Assembly (NCBI RefSeq): GCF_024700885.2
Contig: NZ_CP117016.1
DNA length: 64,000 bases
DNA from: Escherichia coli
GTDB taxonomy: Bacteria; Pseudomonadota; Gammaproteobacteria; Enterobacterales; Enterobacteriaceae
Strand: one strand, 5' to 3'
The translations under genes were made by a program, and so were the position numbers. Shown one piece after another: positions 5,639-62,445 of this stretch (position 1 is the first letter of the stretch; every line of letters begins with the position of its first letter). Below the pieces are notes generated by a model that was given only the letters and a program-made list of their open reading frames with translations, ran no database searches and was not told the origin of the DNA.

Positions 5639-5712
5639 TGGAGCGGGCGAAGGGAATCGAACCCTCGTATAGAGCTTGGGAAGCTCTCGTTCTACCATTG
5701 AACTACGCCCGC
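5639..5712 (-). tRNA. glyU: tRNA-Gly (anticodon CCC)
   Basis: Reverse complement reads GCGGGCGTAGTTCAATGGTAGAACGAGAGCTTCCCAAGCTCTATACGAGGGTTCGATTCCCTTCGCCCGCTCCA with encoded CCA. Confidence 0.95.
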
Positions 5713-37840: not shown

Positions 37841-39289
37841 ATGAGCGCCATAGATTCCCAACTTCCCTCATCTTCAGGGCAAGATCGCCCAACTGATGAG
37901 GTTGACCGCATATTATCACCAGGAAAGCTGATCATACTCGGTCTGCAACACGTCCTTGTCATGTACGCAGGTGCAGTCGCTGTTCCTCTTATGATTGGTG
38001 ACCGACTGGGCCTCTCAAAAGAAGCTATTGCGATGCTCATTAGCTCGGATCTCTTTTGCTGCGGGATCGTCACATTATTGCAATGTATCGGTATCGGCCG
38101 CTTTATGGGGATCCGCCTGCCGGTGATTATGTCGGTGACCTTCGCCGCTGTAACACCAATGATAGCCATTGGGATGAACCCGGATATCGGCCTGCTGGGG
38201 ATATTCGGTGCCACTATCGCCGCGGGTTTTATCACCACATTATTAGCGCCACTTATCGGTCGCTTGATGCCTTTATTCCCGCCACTGGTTACCGGTGTGG
38301 TTATTACTTCTATCGGACTTAGCATCATTCAGGTGGGTATTGACTGGGCCGCAGGAGGTAAAGGGAATCCGCAATATGGTAATCCCGTTTATTTAGGTAT
38401 CTCCTTTGCCGTCTTAATTTTTATCTTGCTCATTACTCGCTATGCGAAAGGATTTATGTCCAACGTCGCCGTATTACTGGGGATTGTATTTGGCTTTTTA
38501 CTTTCGTGGATGATGAATGAAGTCAATTTATCCGGGCTACATGATGCTTCATGGTTTGCGATTGTCACGCCGATGTCATTTGGTATGCCGATTTTCGATC
38601 CCGTTTCCATTCTGACCATGACTGCCGTGTTAATCATCGTGTTTATCGAGTCGATGGGGATGTTCCTGGCACTGGGTGAAATAGTCGGTCGTAAACTCTC
38701 TTCACACGATATTATTCGCGGGCTGCGTGTCGATGGCGTAGGGACAATGATAGGCGGAACGTTTAACAGCTTCCCCCACACGTCATTTTCACAAAACGTT
38801 GGCCTGGTTAGCGTGACGCGCGTTCATAGCCGCTGGGTGTGTATTTCTTCGGGAATTATATTAATCCTGTTTGGCATGGTGCCAAAAATGGCGGTGCTGG
38901 TCGCCTCCATTCCGCAATTTGTGCTGGGCGGTGCTGGGCTGGTGATGTTCGGCATGGTACTGGCGACAGGAATTCGAATTCTGTCGCGCTGTAACTACAC
39001 CACCAACCGTTACAACCTCTATATTGTGGCGATCAGTCTCGGCGTTGGCATGACTCCGACGCTCTCTCACGATTTCTTTTCTAAGTTACCGGCCGTACTG
39101 CAACCGTTGCTGCATAGCGGCATTATGCTCGCAACCCTTAGCGCCGTTGTGCTGAACGTCTTCTTTAATGGCTATCAGCATCATGCTGATCTGGTGAAGG
39201 AATCCGTCTCTGATAAAGATTTAAAAGTCAGGACAGTACGTATGTGGCTTCTGATGCGCAAGCTGAAGAAAAATGAGCATGGAGAATAA
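37841..39289 (+). CDS. uacT: uric acid permease (NCS2/NAT family)
   Basis: 482 aa from the ATG at 37841 (MSAIDSQLPSS...) with AAAGGAG upstream; ORF-track extension from 37712 rejected. Confidence 0.85.
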   Translation: MSAIDSQLPSSSGQDRPTDEVDRILSPGKLIILGLQHVLVMYAGAVAVPLMIGDRLGLSKEAIAMLISSDLFCCGIVTLLQCIGIGRFMGIRLPVIMSVTFAAVTPMIAIGMNPDIGLLGIFGATIAAGFITTLLAPLIGRLMPLFPPLVTGVVITSIGLSIIQVGIDWAAGGKGNPQYGNPVYLGISFAVLIFILLITRYAKGFMSNVAVLLGIVFGFLLSWMMNEVNLSGLHDASWFAIVTPMSFGMPIFDPVSILTMTAVLIIVFIESMGMFLALGEIVGRKLSSHDIIRGLRVDGVGTMIGGTFNSFPHTSFSQNVGLVSVTRVHSRWVCISSGIILILFGMVPKMAVLVASIPQFVLGGAGLVMFGMVLATGIRILSRCNYTTNRYNLYIVAISLGVGMTPTLSHDFFSKLPAVLQPLLHSGIMLATLSAVVLNVFFNGYQHHADLVKESVSDKDLKVRTVRMWLLMRKLKKNEHGE

Positions 39290-39290
39290 T

Positions 39291-39416
39291 ATGAATCTTT
39301 TAATGCGCGCTATATTCAGTCTGTTGTTGCTTTTTACTCTCTCTATTCCTGTCATTTCTGACTGTGTTGCAATGGCCATTGAAAGTCGCTTCAAATATAT
39401 GATGCTGCTTTTTTAA
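39291..39416 (+). CDS. yqfG: small hydrophobic protein, 41 aa (MNLLMRAIFSLLLLFTLSIPVISDCVAMAIESRFKYMMLLF)
   Basis: Not in the ORF track (<60 aa); GGAG about 6 nt upstream; K-12 has a small gene yqfG near idi (from memory). Confidence 0.45.
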   Translation: MNLLMRAIFSLLLLFTLSIPVISDCVAMAIESRFKYMMLLF

Positions 39417-39538
39417 ATGGTTTTTACCTGTCGACATCCGCTCAAAACGGGCGGTTGTCGATAAACGCTCACTTGGTTAATCATTTCACTCTTCAATTAT
39501 CTATAATGATGAGTGATTAGAATTACATGTGAGAAATT

Positions 39539-40087
39539 ATGCAAACGGAACACGTCATTTTATTGAATGCACAGGGAGTTCCCACGGGTACGCTGGAAAA
39601 GTATGCCGCACACACGGCAGACACTCTCTTACATCTCGCGTTCTCCAGTTGGCTGTTTAATGCCAAAGGGCAATTATTAGTTACCCGCCGCGCACTGAGC
39701 AAAAAAGCATGGCCTGGCGTGTGGACTAACTCGGTTTGTGGGCACCCACAACTGGGAGAAAGCAACGAAGACGCAGTGATCCGCCGTTGCCGTTATGAGC
39801 TTGGCGTGGAAATTACGCCTCCTGAATCTATCTATCCTGACTTTCGCTACCGCGCCACCGATCCGAATGGCATTGTGGAAAATGAAGTGTGTCCGGTATT
39901 TGCCGCACGCACGACCAGTGCGTTACAGATCAATGATGATGAAGTGATGGATTATCAATGGTGTGATTTAGCAGATGTATTACACGGTATTGATGCCACA
40001 CCGTGGGCGTTCAGTCCGTGGATGGTGATGCAGGCAGCCAATAGTGAAGCAAGAAAATTGTTGTCTGCTTTCGCGCAGCACAATTAA
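39539..40087 (+). CDS. idi: isopentenyl-diphosphate delta-isomerase
   Basis: 182-aa ORF of the Nudix-fold IPP isomerase type. Confidence 0.9.
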
Positions 40088-40110
40088 AAAACCCCGACAT
40101 TTGCCGGGGT
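40086..40110 (-). terminator. rho-independent terminator of the prfB-lysS operon
   Basis: On the minus strand, ACCCCGGCAAATGTCGGGGT hairpin followed by TTTTTT. Confidence 0.65.
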
Positions 40111-40129
40111 TGTGAGCATAACGTAATGC

Positions 40130-41647
40130 TTATTTCACCGGACGCATCGCCGGGAACAGAATAACGTCGCGGATGGTATGGCTGTTGGTGAACAGCATTA
40201 CCATACGGTCGATACCAATTCCCAGACCTGCTGTCGGCGGTAAGCCATGTTCCAGTGCGGTGACATAATCTTCGTCGTAGAACATCGCTTCGTCGTCGCC
40301 TGCGTCTTTCGCGGCAACCTGATCCAGGAAGCGCTGCGCCTGATCTTCCGCGTCATTCAGCTCGCTAAAGCCGTTACCGATTTCACGACCACCAATGAAG
40401 AACTCAAAGCGGTCTGTGATTTCCGGGTTAACGTCGTTACGACGCGCCAGCGGAGAAACTTCTGCCGGATATTCAGTAATGAAGGTCGGCTGAATCAGAT
40501 GTGCTTCTGCCACTTCTTCGAAGATCTCGGTAACGATACGGCCCAGACCCCAGCTCTTCTCAACGTGGATACCGATAGATTCAGCAATCGCTTTCGCAGA
40601 GTCGAAGTTGTCCAGATCTGCCATGTCGGTTTCCGGGCGATATTTCTTGATCGCTTCACGCATGGTCAGTTTTTCGAACGGTTTACCGAAGTCCAGCGTC
40701 ACGTCGCCGTAGGTCACTTCCGTCTTACCGAGAATATCCTGTGCCAGAGTACGGAACAGCGATTCGGTCAGCTCGATCAGATCTTTGTAATCCGCGTAAG
40801 CCATATAGAGTTCCATCATGGTGAACTCTGGGTTATGACGTACGGAGATACCTTCGTTACGGAAGTTACGGTTGATTTCGAATACACGCTCGAAGCCACC
40901 GACCACCAGACGCTTGAGGTACAGTTCCGGCGCGATACGCAGGTACATGTCGAGATCCAGCGCATTATGGTGGGTGATAAACGGACGCGCAGCGGCACCG
41001 CCTGGGATCACCTGCATCATCGGCGTTTCAACTTCCATAAAGCCGCGGTTCACCATGAACTGGCGAATACCAGAGAGGATCTGCGAGCGCACTTTAAAAG
41101 TGTTGCGGGATTCATCGTTAGAGATGAGATCCAAATAACGCTGACGATAGCGCGCTTCCTGATCCTGCAAGCCGTGGAATTTGTCCGGCAGCGGACGCAG
41201 TGCTTTGGTCAGCAGACGCAGCTCGGTGCAGTGGATAGACAGTTCGCCAGTTTTGGTTTTGAACAGTTTACCTTTCGCGCCGAGGATGTCGCCGAGGTCC
41301 CATTTTTTGAACTGCTCGTTGTAAATGCCTTCCGGCAGATCGTCACGGGCAACGTACAGCTGAATGCGGCCCCCCACGTCCTGCAGGGTAACGAAAGACG
41401 CTTTACCCATAATACGACGGGTCATCATGCGGCCAGCAACGGCAACTTCGATGTTCAGCGCTTCCAGTTCTTCGTTCTCTTTACCGTCGAATTCTGCGTG
41501 CAATTGGTCAGAGGTATGATCGCGACGGAAATCGTTCGGGAAGGCAATCCCCTGCTCGCGCAGGTTCGCCAGCTTCTCACGACGCGTTTTCAGTTCATTG
41601 TTAAGATCGACTACCGCGTCAGCGCCCTGTGCGTGTTGTTCAGACAT
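40130..41647 (-). CDS. lysS: lysine--tRNA ligase (constitutive)
   Basis: 505-aa class II aminoacyl-tRNA synthetase; immediately downstream of prfB. Confidence 0.95.
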
Positions 41648-41656
41648 GTTGGTTCC

Positions 41657-42755
41657 TCATAACCCTGCTTTCAAACTTGCTTCGATAAATTGATCCAGGC
41701 TGCCGTCCAGCACGGCCTGCGTGTTGCGGGTTTCTACCCCGGTACGCAGATCTTTAATGCGGGAGTCATCAAGGACATAAGAACGAATCTGGCTGCCCCA
41801 GCCGATATCAGATTTATTATCTTCCATCGCCTGTTTCTCGGCATTTTTCTTCTGCATCTCCAGTTCATAAAGCTTCGCTTTCATCTGCTTCATGGCCTGG
41901 TCTTTGTTCTTGTGCTGGGAACGGTCGTTCTGGCACTGGGTCACGATCCCGGTCGGGATGTGGGTAATACGCACCGCAGATTCGGTACGGTTAACGTGCT
42001 GACCGCCCGCGCCGGACGCGCGATAAACGTCGATGCGCAGATCCGCCGGGTTGATTTCGATATCAATATCGTCATCAACTTCCGGGTAAACAAACGCGGA
42101 GCTGAACGACGTGTGGCGACGACCGCCGGAGTCAAACGGGCTCTTACGCACCAGGCGGTGAACGCCAGTTTCTGTACGCAGCCAGCCGTAAGCGTAATCG
42201 CCGGAGATTTTGATCGTCACGGATTTAATACCCGCCACTTCACCTTCCGACTCTTCGATGATTTCAGTTTTGAAACCACGCGATTCTGCCCAGCGCAGAT
42301 ACATACGCTCAAGCATGCTCGCCCAGTCCTGTGCTTCCGTACCACCAGACCCCGCCTGAATATCGAGGTAGCAGTCGGCGCTGTCATATTCGCCAGAGAA
42401 CATACGGCGGAACTCAAGCTGCGCCAGTTTTTCTTCCAGAGCGTCGAGTTCAGCAACGGCTTCGTTAAAGGTTTCTTCGTCGTCAGCTTCTACAGCCAGT
42501 TCCAGCAGACCAGAAACATCTTCCAGCCCCTGTTTCATTTGGTCAAGGGTGTCGACAACGGCTTCGAGGGAGGAACGCTCTTTACCCAGCGCCTGTGCGC
42601 GTTCGGGTTCGTTCCAGACATCCGGCTGTTCCAGCTCGGCGTTTACTTCTTCCAGACGCTCTTTCTTGGCGTCATAGTCAAAGATACCCCCTAAGAACGT
42701 CGGAGCGTTCCGTGAGGTCCTGAATGCGATTATTTACCGGATTAATTTCAAACAT
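41657..42755 (-). CDS. prfB: peptide chain release factor 2, requiring a programmed +1 ribosomal frameshift
   Basis: N-terminal [12 protein letters not shown]... starts at 42755; frameshift site CTT TGA C at 42677-42683 (minus strand) preceded by the internal Shine-Dalgarno AGGGGG; downstream frame is the 41657..42538 ORF. Confidence 0.95.
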
Positions 42756-42845
42756 GGTCTGATTTCTTTTCTTGAGCTAGTCAAAATGCGGTGATAAGAG
42801 CGGGATTGTACCCAATCCACGCTCTTTTTTATAGAGAAGATGACG

Positions 42846-44579
42846 CTAAATTGGCCAGATATTGTCGATGATAATTTGCAGGCTGCGATTGCCGCGAAAC
42901 TCGTTGATATCAAGCTTATAAGCCAGTTGCACTTCGCGCACGCCGTTATCCGGCCAAAGGGCGGTATCAACGTTAAAGGCAATGCCGTCCAGCAGCGGGC
43001 CGCCGCCGACCGGTTCAACCATGACCTTCAAATGGCGTTCGCCTACCAGTCGTTGTTGCAGAAGGCGGAAATGACCGTCAAACAGCGGCTCCGGGAACAT
43101 CTGCCCCCACGGGCCAGCATCGCGCAGCAGCTGCGCTACTTCCATGGTCATTTCGGCCGGGCTTAACGGGCCGTCTGACACCACTTCGCCTTGCAATAGT
43201 GAAGGATCCAGCCACTCAGTAACCAGTTCGCCAAACCGTTGTTGAAAGAGTTCGAATTTATCCTCTTCCAGCGACAAACCAGCCGCCATCGCATGACCGC
43301 CAAACTTGAGCATCATGCCAGGGTAGAGCATGTCTAACCGCTCCAGCGCATCACGCATATGCAGCCCCTGAATGGAGCGACCGGAACCTTTCAGCGTACC
43401 ATCACCTGCTGGCGCAAAGGCGATAACCGGACGATGAAAACGCTCTTTGATGCGCGAAGCCAGAATGCCGACCACGCCCTGATGCCATTCGGGGTGATAC
43501 ATTGCCAGCCCACCGGGTAGCGTGTCGCGGCTGCGCTCCAGTTTCTCGCACAGGGTCAGGGCTTCAATCTGCATTCCCTGTTCGATCTCTTTTCGCGTCT
43601 GGTTTAGCGCATCGAGTTCATTTGCCAGCACGCGCGCTTCGCCGATGTTGTCGCACAGCAACAGCGCCACACCAACGGACATATCATCCAGTCGCCCGGC
43701 GGCATTGAGACGCGGCCCCAGCGCAAAACCTAAATCGCTGGCGGCGAGTTTTTGCGCATCGCGATTGGCCACTTCCAGCAGCGCTTTAATCCCCGGACGG
43801 CACTTCCCGGCGCGGATGCGGCTCATCCCCTGCCAGGTCAGAATACGGTTATTAGCGTCCAGCGGCACCACGTCTGCCACTGTCCCCAACGCCACCAGAT
43901 CCAGCAGTTCTGCCAGATTAGGAATTGCGATGCCGCGCTCATCAAACCAGCCCTGATCGCGCAAAAAGGTGCGCAGAGCCAGCATCAGATAAAACGCCAC
44001 ACCCACGCCTGCCAGTGATTTCGACGGGAAATTACAGTCGCGCAAGTTAGGGTTAATGATCGCTTCCGCTGCGGGTAATGTGTCGCCCGGCAAATGGTGA
44101 TCGGTAACAATAACCGGAATGCCCAACGAACGAGCGTGTTCAACCCCCGCATGGGAGGAAATACCGTTATCCACCGTGACAATTAACTGCGCGCCACGGG
44201 CATGGGCCTGATCGACTACTTCCGGGCTTAAGCCGTAACCGTCTTCGAAACGGTTTGGTACCAGGTAGTCGATATTGCTGCAACCAAGCGAGCGCATCGC
44301 CAGCACGCTTAGAGCCGTGCTGGTCGCGCCGTCGGCGTCGAAATCACCGACCACAATAATCCGCGTTCCTTCGCGAAAAGCGTTGTAAAGGATCTCAACG
44401 GCCTTTTCGACGCCGCTCAGTTGCTGCCAGGGCAGCATACCTTTAACACTGCGTTCCAGTTCATGCGCACTGCGTACTCCCCGGCTGGCGTATAAACGGC
44501 GCAGCAAGGGAGGCAATTCCGCGGGCAAGTCTGCCGTTTCATCGACTTCACGGCGACGAAGTTGTATCTGTTGTTTCAC
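42846..44579 (-). CDS. recJ: single-stranded-DNA-specific 5'-3' exonuclease
   Basis: 577-aa ORF with DHH motif (VTDHH). Confidence 0.95.
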   Translation of the reverse strand: MKQQIQLRRREVDETADLPAELPPLLRRLYASRGVRSAHELERSVKGMLPWQQLSGVEKAVEILYNAFREGTRIIVVGDFDADGATSTALSVLAMRSLGCSNIDYLVPNRFEDGYGLSPEVVDQAHARGAQLIVTVDNGISSHAGVEHARSLGIPVIVTDHHLPGDTLPAAEAIINPNLRDCNFPSKSLAGVGVAFYLMLALRTFLRDQGWFDERGIAIPNLAELLDLVALGTVADVVPLDANNRILTWQGMSRIRAGKCRPGIKALLEVANRDAQKLAASDLGFALGPRLNAAGRLDDMSVGVALLLCDNIGEARVLANELDALNQTRKEIEQGMQIEALTLCEKLERSRDTLPGGLAMYHPEWHQGVVGILASRIKERFHRPVIAFAPAGDGTLKGSGRSIQGLHMRDALERLDMLYPGMMLKFGGHAMAAGLSLEEDKFELFQQRFGELVTEWLDPSLLQGEVVSDGPLSPAEMTMEVAQLLRDAGPWGQMFPEPLFDGHFRLLQQRLVGERHLKVMVEPVGGGPLLDGIAFNVDTALWPDNGVREVQLAYKLDINEFRGNRSLQIIIDNIWPI

Positions 44580-44584
44580 GCGAA

Positions 44585-45295
44585 TTATTTACCGCTGGTC
44601 ATTTTTTGGTGTTCGTCGAGGAATTCTTTCATGTCTTTCGGCGGCTGGTAACCCGGAACAAGTGTGCCATTGCTCAGCACAACTGCTGGAGTACCGCTAA
44701 CGCCAAGCTGGACGCCAAGTGCGTAATGGTCGGCAATATCCACGTCGCAGCTGGCTGGTGCGACGCTTTTACCTGCCATCACATCATCAAACGCTTTGTT
44801 TTTATCTTTCGCACACCAGATAGCTTTCATTTCTTTCTCTGCATCGCTATCCAGCCCCTGGCGCGGGAAAGCAAGATAACGCACGGTGATCCCCAGCGCG
44901 TTATAGTCTGCCATTTGCTCATGCAGTTTGTGGCAGTAACCACAGGTAATATCAGTAAACACGGTGATGACGTGTTTTTCCTGCGGCGCTTTATAAACGA
45001 TCATCTCTTTTTCAAGCGCATTCAACTGCTTTAACAGCATCTTATTGGTGACATTGACCGGAGCCGTGCCACTAACGTCATACATTGGCCCCTGAATGAT
45101 ATGTTTACCATCATCGGTGATGTACAACACACCGCTGTTAGTCAGAACTGTCTTCATGCCAGCTACGGGCGCGGGCTGAATATCGCTGCTTTTGATGCCC
45201 ATTTTGGCTAACGTTTGTTGAATTGCCGCGTCATCAGCCTGAGCAAAGCCTGAAAACGCCGCCAACAAAGTAAACAACATAAAACCTTTCTTCAT
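44585..45295 (-). CDS. dsbC: periplasmic disulfide bond isomerase
   Basis: 236-aa ORF with signal peptide and CGYC active site. Confidence 0.95.
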   Translation of the reverse strand: MKKGFMLFTLLAAFSGFAQADDAAIQQTLAKMGIKSSDIQPAPVAGMKTVLTNSGVLYITDDGKHIIQGPMYDVSGTAPVNVTNKMLLKQLNALEKEMIVYKAPQEKHVITVFTDITCGYCHKLHEQMADYNALGITVRYLAFPRQGLDSDAEKEMKAIWCAKDKNKAFDDVMAGKSVAPASCDVDIADHYALGVQLGVSGTPAVVLSNGTLVPGYQPPKDMKEFLDEHQKMTSGK

Positions 45296-45319
45296 AAATC
45301 TTCCCGTTCTTTTCAGACA

Positions 45320-46216
45320 TCACGCCCGCGGGTGATGCTGTTGATGAAGTTGCCGCAGACGCTCGGTAGCGACATGCGTATAAATTTGCGTGGTGGAGAG
45401 ATCGCTGTGGCCCAGTAGCATCTGCACCACGCGTAAATCCGCACCATGATTTAATAAGTGAGTGGCAAAAGCGTGACGCAACACATGCGGTGACAGCTTT
45501 TCGCTGTCGATACCCGCCAGCACGGCATAATGTTTAATGCGGTGCCAGAAGGTCTGTCGCGTCATCTGCTGCGCACGCTGGCTGGGAAACAACACGTCAA
45601 TTGACACACCATTCAGCAGCCACGGACGCCCATGTTCCAGATAGGTTTCCAGCCAGTAAACCGCCTCTTCACCTAACGGCACCAGGCGCTCTTTGTTGCC
45701 TTTACCAATGACCCGCACTACGCCCTGACGCAGGCTGATATCACTCATTGTCAGCCCGACCAGTTCAGAGACACGCAGTCCGGTAGCATACAACACTTCA
45801 AGCATGGCTTTATCGCGTAGCTCCAGTGGCTGATCAATTAATGGTGCCTGCAATAAACGTTCGACCTGCGCTTCGCTTAAATCTTTTGGCAAACGCTGGG
45901 GCAATTTCGGTGAAGCGAGATGCGCACTGGGATCGTCTTCACGAAACTTTTCGCGATAAAGATACTGGAACAATCGGCGCACTGCACTCAGCAAACGCGC
46001 TGAGCTGGTGGCTTTATACCCGCCCTCCAGCCTTTCTGCCAGTAATGCCTGCAAATCGTCACTTTGCGCCGTCGCCAGCGTCAACCCGCGGTGATGCAAC
46101 CACTCCACCATCATTGACAGATCGCGACGGTATGCGTTCAACGTATTTTCAGCCAGATTTTTTTCCAGCCACAGAGCATCAAGAAACTGCTCGATGCGTG
46201 CCAGATCCTGTTTCAC
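45320..46216 (-). CDS. xerD: site-specific tyrosine recombinase
   Basis: 298-aa ORF with tyrosine-recombinase R..HxxR..Y residues. Confidence 0.95.
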   Translation of the reverse strand: MKQDLARIEQFLDALWLEKNLAENTLNAYRRDLSMMVEWLHHRGLTLATAQSDDLQALLAERLEGGYKATSSARLLSAVRRLFQYLYREKFREDDPSAHLASPKLPQRLPKDLSEAQVERLLQAPLIDQPLELRDKAMLEVLYATGLRVSELVGLTMSDISLRQGVVRVIGKGNKERLVPLGEEAVYWLETYLEHGRPWLLNGVSIDVLFPSQRAQQMTRQTFWHRIKHYAVLAGIDSEKLSPHVLRHAFATHLLNHGADLRVVQMLLGHSDLSTTQIYTHVATERLRQLHQQHHPRA

Positions 46217-61433: not shown

Positions 61434-61617
61434 ATTTCTCTGAGATGTTCGCAAGCGGGCCAGTCCCCTGAGCCGATATTTCATACCACAAGAATGTGGC
61501 GCTCCGCGGTTGGTGAGCATGCTCGGTCCGTCCGAGAAGCCTTAAAACTGCGACGACACATTCACCTTGAACCAAGGGTTCAAGGGTTACAGCCTGCGGC
61601 GGCATCTCGGAGATTCC
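61434..61617 (+). ncRNA. ssrS: 6S RNA (RNA polymerase sigma70-holoenzyme regulator)
   Basis: Matches the remembered 6S sequence ATTTCTCTGAGATGTTCGCAAGCGGGCCAGTCCCCTGAGCC...GGCATCTCGGAGATTCCCT. Confidence 0.9.
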
Positions 61618-62240: not shown

Positions 62241-62301
62241 GGGCGACACACCTGCATCGCCCTGATTGACATCGTTGATTCTTTAACCTAATTTAGTGAG
62301 T

Positions 62302-62445
62302 AAGGGTAAGGGAGGATGACTCCTCCCCTGAGACTGACTGTTAATAAGCTGGGAAACTTATGAGTAACAGTACAATCAGTATGATGACAAGTCGCATCAT
62401 AACCCTTCTCCTTCAAGCCCTCGCTTCGGTGAGGGCTTTACCGTT
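62302..62445 (+). ncRNA. sibC: SibC-like antisense sRNA (type I antitoxin), ends approximate
   Basis: Putative promoter TTGACA (62266-62271), 17-bp spacer, TAATTT (62289-62294); fully antisense to ibsC; 3' hairpin AGCCCTCGCTTCGGTGAGGGCT. Confidence 0.5.
62341..62400 (-). CDS. ibsC: IbsC-family 19-aa hydrophobic toxin (type I toxin-antitoxin)
   Basis: Reverse strand encodes ATG ATG CGA CTT GTC ATC ATA CTG ATT GTA CTG TTA CTC ATA AGT TTC CCA GCT TAT TAA = MMRLVIILIVLLLISFPAY; AAGGAG Shine-Dalgarno upstream. Confidence 0.75.
   Translation of the reverse strand: MMRLVIILIVLLLISFPAY

Follow-up and report, generated by a model that had tools for sequence, protein, structure and literature searches.

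The intact programmed +1 frameshift site of prfB in a 64-kb stretch of Escherichia coli DNA

The window considered here, a stretch of 64,000 nucleotides of Escherichia coli DNA (contig NZ_CP117016.1) taken at its full length, carries on its minus strand a site that is almost certainly that of the programmed +1 ribosomal frameshifting in prfB by which release factor 2 (RF2) adjusts its own level. All of the known stimulatory elements are present at the canonical spacing, namely AGGGGG, a 3-nt UAU, CUU-U and UGA-C, and we found nothing in the sequence against the reading as a programmed frameshift. The site is a textbook case that is already known, the type example rather than a variant.

Results

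In the minus-strand sequence between 42900 and 42500, an ATG is present at 42755, followed by codons that begin TTT GAA ATT and close with CTT AGG GGG TAT CTT TGA C. The preliminary description of this DNA had suggested translating frame 0 from 42755 and moving to the +1 frame after codon 25; done in this way, the translation gives 25 sense codons from the ATG (42755-42753) to an in-frame TGA and then 340 open codons. A 25-aa ORF at 42678..42755 is also in the ORF list, with the same product as the direct translation. The zero-frame segment of prfB, codons 1-25, thus occupies 42681..42755 (minus strand, as are all the elements of the site), as placed by sequence read, ORF list, translation and script, and the +1 frame, which opens at GAC 42679-42677, extends over 41657..42679 as codons 26-365 and a TGA stop (41659-41657, followed by G), a segment supported by translation, profile match, alignment and script.

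Between the two segments, AGGGGG-TAT-CTT-TGA-C spans 42692-42677, with the zero-frame stop inside it. The internal Shine-Dalgarno-like AGGGGG (42687..42692; sequence read, pattern scan and script) covers codons 22-23, Arg-Gly, and lies 3 nt 5' of CTT and 6 nt 5' of the stop. The spacer TAT, Tyr24, which is also the E-site codon, fills 42684..42686, in agreement with the 3-nt spacing claimed before. The slippery CTTT (42680..42683) is made of the Leu25 codon CTT (42683-42681) and the T at 42680 that belongs to the stop, its role in the shift being taken from PMC12421855; the premature TGA itself, frame 0 codon 26 and an RF2-specific stop, is at 42678..42680 (translation and script). The C at 42677 (42677..42677) gives the weak UGA-C context and is at the same time the third base of the +1 frame codon GAC for Asp26; these last assignments, like those of the spacer and the slippery bases, were made by script. 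Both the CTTTGAC heptamer and the upstream AGGGGG on which the preliminary description rested are therefore there to the base. The span it gave, 42650-42755, does contain all of these elements, but its lower bound is arbitrary, lying 27 nt past the shift site within the +1 coding sequence.

The stop near codon 26, the CTT, the C, the SD-like spacing, the open +1 frame and the register were all found at this place, as expected for a member of the prfB cassette class. AGGGGGNNNCTTTGAC has a single exact match in the 64-kb window, against about 0.002 exact matches expected on both strands from base composition, and the only other match in the window needs 2 mismatches, which is at chance level (shuffle mean 1.06). 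Searches against Rfam gave no match at the site, either over 39000-46000 with permissive E-values or over the whole window at gathering scores; Rfam apparently holds no model for the cassette, so this null result is uninformative. Two weak permissive matches, to an Enterococcus sRNA and a snoRNA, were far under their gathering scores and away from the site.

Joining codons 1-25 of frame 0 to the +1 frame yields a protein of 365 aa which, judged by its sequence, is release factor 2. Against NCBIfam TIGR00020, the prfB equivalog model for peptide chain release factor 2, its score is 525.9 bits (cut-off 370); the RF1 models give 304-306 bits, under their cut-offs of 400-423. Residues 1-365 pair with the same residues of the E. 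coli RF2 chain in PDB 1gqe, with no gap at the junction; the single substitution, in KLYE(L/V)EMQ, is Leu for Val. The SPF of stop-codon recognition is intact at 205-207, and so is the catalytic GGQ at 250-252. Codon 246 (window 42020-42018, minus strand) encodes Ala246, the canonical non-K-12 form; the RF2 of K-12 strains differs from it in having Thr246, with reduced release activity (PMC5373646).

The gene lies between recJ, which ends at 42846 and leaves a gap of 90 nt to prfB, and lysS (lysine-tRNA ligase; 40130..41647, minus strand; ORF list, RefSeq and sequence read), whose ATG (41645-41647) comes 9 nt past the prfB stop. An intrinsic-terminator-like hairpin with a T-run follows just 3' of lysS, at 40090..40111 on the minus strand (terminator scan). 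By consensus scan, the 90-nt intergenic region between recJ and prfB has no sigma-70-like site. The same region contains a stable hairpin (42796..42826, minus strand; scan and folding) of the form AAGAGCG.GGAUUG....CAAUCC CGCUCUU, in a 93-nt stretch that folds with z = -2.76. On the minus strand this hairpin stands 3' of the recJ stop with no clear U-tract; a T run that would make it terminator-like is found on its plus-strand side, antisense to both genes. Elsewhere in the window are 6S RNA, ssrS, at 61434-61617 (plus strand, 139.8 bits, Rfam), a Sib antitoxin RNA at 62266-62416 (plus strand, 136.5 bits, Rfam) and a tRNA-Gly(CCC) at 5639-5712 (minus strand, ARAGORN).

For a comparison across species, we collected RF2 genes from one genome per species by a degenerate DNA pattern for the RF2-specific HRLVRxSPFD, which lies about 520 nt 3' of the site, so that the cassette was not itself a criterion. 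At least 120 loci from many phyla were obtained, 110 of them with enough upstream sequence to classify; arginine codons of the AGR type fall outside the pattern, and the set is accordingly a sample, not a full census. An in-register CTT-stop cassette was present in 67 of the 110 RF2 genes from other species (61%) among the matches listed, the CTT being required by the cassette screen. These cassettes precede the HRLVRxSPFD anchor by 170-177 codons, and the commonest distance among the matches listed, 173 codons (49/67), is also that of the window. The premature stop of the 67 listed cassettes is TGA in 66, TAA in one and TAG in none; C follows it in 63, GG[AG]GG is found at -8 to -4 in 51, and TAT is the commonest spacer codon (37/67). 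The full 16-mer pattern AGGGGGNNNCTTTGAC recurs in 15 of the 67 listed cassettes of other species. Visual inspection of individual loci showed cassettes that were canonical or whose SD-like sequence was weak. The remaining 43 of the 110 listed loci are all contiguous RF2 ORFs, each having a start codon that precedes the anchor by 186 codons or more. In the published survey, a premature prfB stop was found in 64% of 12,753 genomes and a contiguous gene in 36% (Prince, Lin and Feaga, mBio 2025, PMC12421855), and the logo given there has a near AGGGGG consensus, a near-invariant CTTTGA, a C next to it and no TAG; our sample figures agree with both the percentage and the logo.

Within E. coli, the 1301-nt prfB region of the window is 100% identical to that of strain SMS-3-5 (NC_010498.1), where prfB likewise lies downstream of recJ and upstream of lysS, and where RefSeq records it as a two-piece joined CDS (WP_001701073.1) with the note 'programmed frameshift' and no pseudogene mark. 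Since this note is attached to an identical sequence, the feature is already annotated publicly. Of 5426 complete E. coli genomes, 5425 have one copy of the region; the one other genome gave no prfB match, and in another the matching record is labelled a plasmid. Over the 106 nt of leader and cassette, 5399 of the 5425 genomes keep an identity of 99% or more, whereas the whole 1301-nt region reaches that identity in only 272. Among the E. coli sequences that we aligned, the sole difference near the site is synonymous, Tyr27 being TAT here and TAC in two others. At least 4401 of the 5425 genomes have the form with five G (G5), the figure being derived from 4403 genomes that match a query with one G less (G4) at 99% identity or more, only 2 of them exactly.

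These two genomes, O145 RM8995-C1 (NZ_CP031355.1) and the dog isolate 51008369SK1 (NZ_CP029973.1), have AGGGG in place of AGGGGG, at the bases that match window 42692-42687. The 1-nt loss joins the leader to the RF2 frame 5' of the TGA (...RGIFDYD...), and in RM8995-C1 PGAP calls a contiguous 365-aa prfB without a frameshift note. The G4 allele either is a sequencing error in a G homopolymer or marks isolates in which RF2 autoregulation has naturally been lost. A different kind of irregularity is seen in NIPH17_0036 (NZ_AP024561.1), where a stretch of about 70 bp within prfB, at approximately window 42415-42345, is scrambled with a net deletion of 26 bp while the cassette is intact; prfB is annotated there as a pseudogene ('PCRF domain-containing protein'). 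Because prfB is essential in E. coli, this scramble is probably an assembly artefact.

Discussion

Our consideration of how the site would work in this strain leans on what is established for other strains. The RF2 frameshift and its dependence on RF2 dosage have been demonstrated experimentally in E. coli with the same cassette, as related in PMC12421855 with its references 11, 12, 14 and 18, and the shift activity and inverse RF2 dependence that we ascribe to the present gene would carry over from those strains. According to that account (PMC12421855), since UGA is read by RF2, abundant RF2 would end translation at codon 26 and release the 25-aa peptide. With RF2 scarce, the ribosome would pause at the poorly recognised UGA-C; AGGGGG, paired with the anti-SD of 16S rRNA, would help to displace the E-site tRNA, and the P-site tRNA-Leu would then re-pair from CUU to UUU. 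GAC (Asp26) could thereby enter the A site, and synthesis of the full-length 365-aa RF2 would close a negative feedback loop. The gene also ends with a TGA of its own (context TGA-G), and the synthesis of full-length RF2 is thus likewise terminated by RF2. The autoregulatory reading offered in the preliminary description is supported by the TIGR00020 match, the alignment to 1gqe and the RefSeq join annotation. One may ask whether the 25-residue termination product has a function of its own and is not a mere by-product; we regard this as very doubtful, the conservation of the leader being fully accounted for because it is both the N-terminus of RF2 and, at the nucleotide level, the cassette.

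If the site is instead looked at without the concept of a programmed shift, prfB might be taken for a pseudogene, its TGA brought into frame by a disabling frameshift mutation, and a mechanical reading does break the gene up into an ORF of 25 codons and a longer one that lies in a different frame. Against this, the break sits exactly in the 16-nt cassette, at the same position as in 67 of the 110 listed RF2 genes from many phyla, and the population of E. coli genomes shares both the G5 form (at least 4401 of 5425) and the leader and cassette (5399 of 5425 at 99% identity or more). Downstream of the break are 340 open codons with SPF and GGQ intact and one substitution relative to the crystallised RF2; RefSeq sets no pseudogene flag, and RF2 is an essential protein in E. 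coli. We therefore consider the pseudogene reading, which is highly improbable, to be effectively refuted: the break keeps its position across phyla, ORF and motifs are intact after it, and the population data agree. The preliminary description went further in holding that the site confirms prfB to be functional and not a pseudogene. The intact cassette and ORF, the SPF and GGQ motifs and the conservation all speak for this, but the word 'confirms' says more than can be proved from sequence alone.

Equally improbable, in our estimation, is an arrangement of two cistrons without any frameshift, in which a 25-aa leader peptide ends at the TGA and ribosomes re-initiate with AGGGGG serving as an ordinary Shine-Dalgarno sequence. 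AGGGGG is indeed a good SD-like sequence just 5' of the +1 frame. That frame, however, has no ATG, GTG or TTG from its opening down to 42538, where the ORF list places its first start, Met73 (41657..42538), and a re-initiation product would therefore lack residues 1-72, whereas in the solved E. coli RF2 chains the frame-0 residues 1-25 are contiguous with the +1 residue 26 onward. That CTT-T and the C following the stop are invariant across phyla (CTT being part of our own screen) fits slippage instead. Re-initiation is rejected on the contrast between the nearest +1 start, Met73, and the solved chains that continue over the junction. A junction peptide, LRGYLDYDAK, is reported for E. coli RF2 in original work as cited in PMC12421855.

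The least credible reading of all, that the window contains an extra base through sequencing or assembly error and that the true gene is one contiguous frame, can point to the 2 of 5425 records that are contiguous through a G run 1 nt shorter and to the fact that single-base differences at this place do occur in databases, but it is refuted by the population data, with at least 4401 independent complete genomes of the G5 form and 5399 of 5425 at least 99% identical over leader and cassette, so that an error, if any, is more likely to be in the two G4 records.

With the programmed +1 frameshift thus retained, the site can be placed among known systems. As described in PMC12421855, where Craigen and Caskey 1986 and Weiss et al. 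1987 are cited for it, the E. coli prfB +1 frameshift is alike in every respect, with the 25-codon leader, AGGGGG, UAU, CUU-UGA-C, GAC for Asp26 and 365 aa; the cassette nucleotides given there are identical to those of the window, with no difference at the site. The contiguous type of prfB, found in Actinomycetota, Campylobacterota and others, belongs to the same family and has HRLVRxSPFD and GGQ as here, but it runs as one ORF free of premature stops, as in the 43 of 110 loci among the matches listed, and is without SD-like and slippery elements according to the published logo (PMC12421855); the window gene is not of that type. Further removed are dnaX and the IS3-family transposases, in which the programmed frameshift is -1, at a heptanucleotide X XXY YYZ with a downstream structure and with no sensing of a release factor, in contrast to the +1 shift at a stop codon in prfB. 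An internal SD-like stimulator is used by dnaX also.

Beyond annotation, our analysis adds nothing new to what is understood of this cassette, which was recently surveyed in more than 12,000 genomes. For annotation, its meaning is that prfB should be called one gene, joined over the +1 shift at 42681/42679, and neither a pseudogene nor a pair of ORFs.
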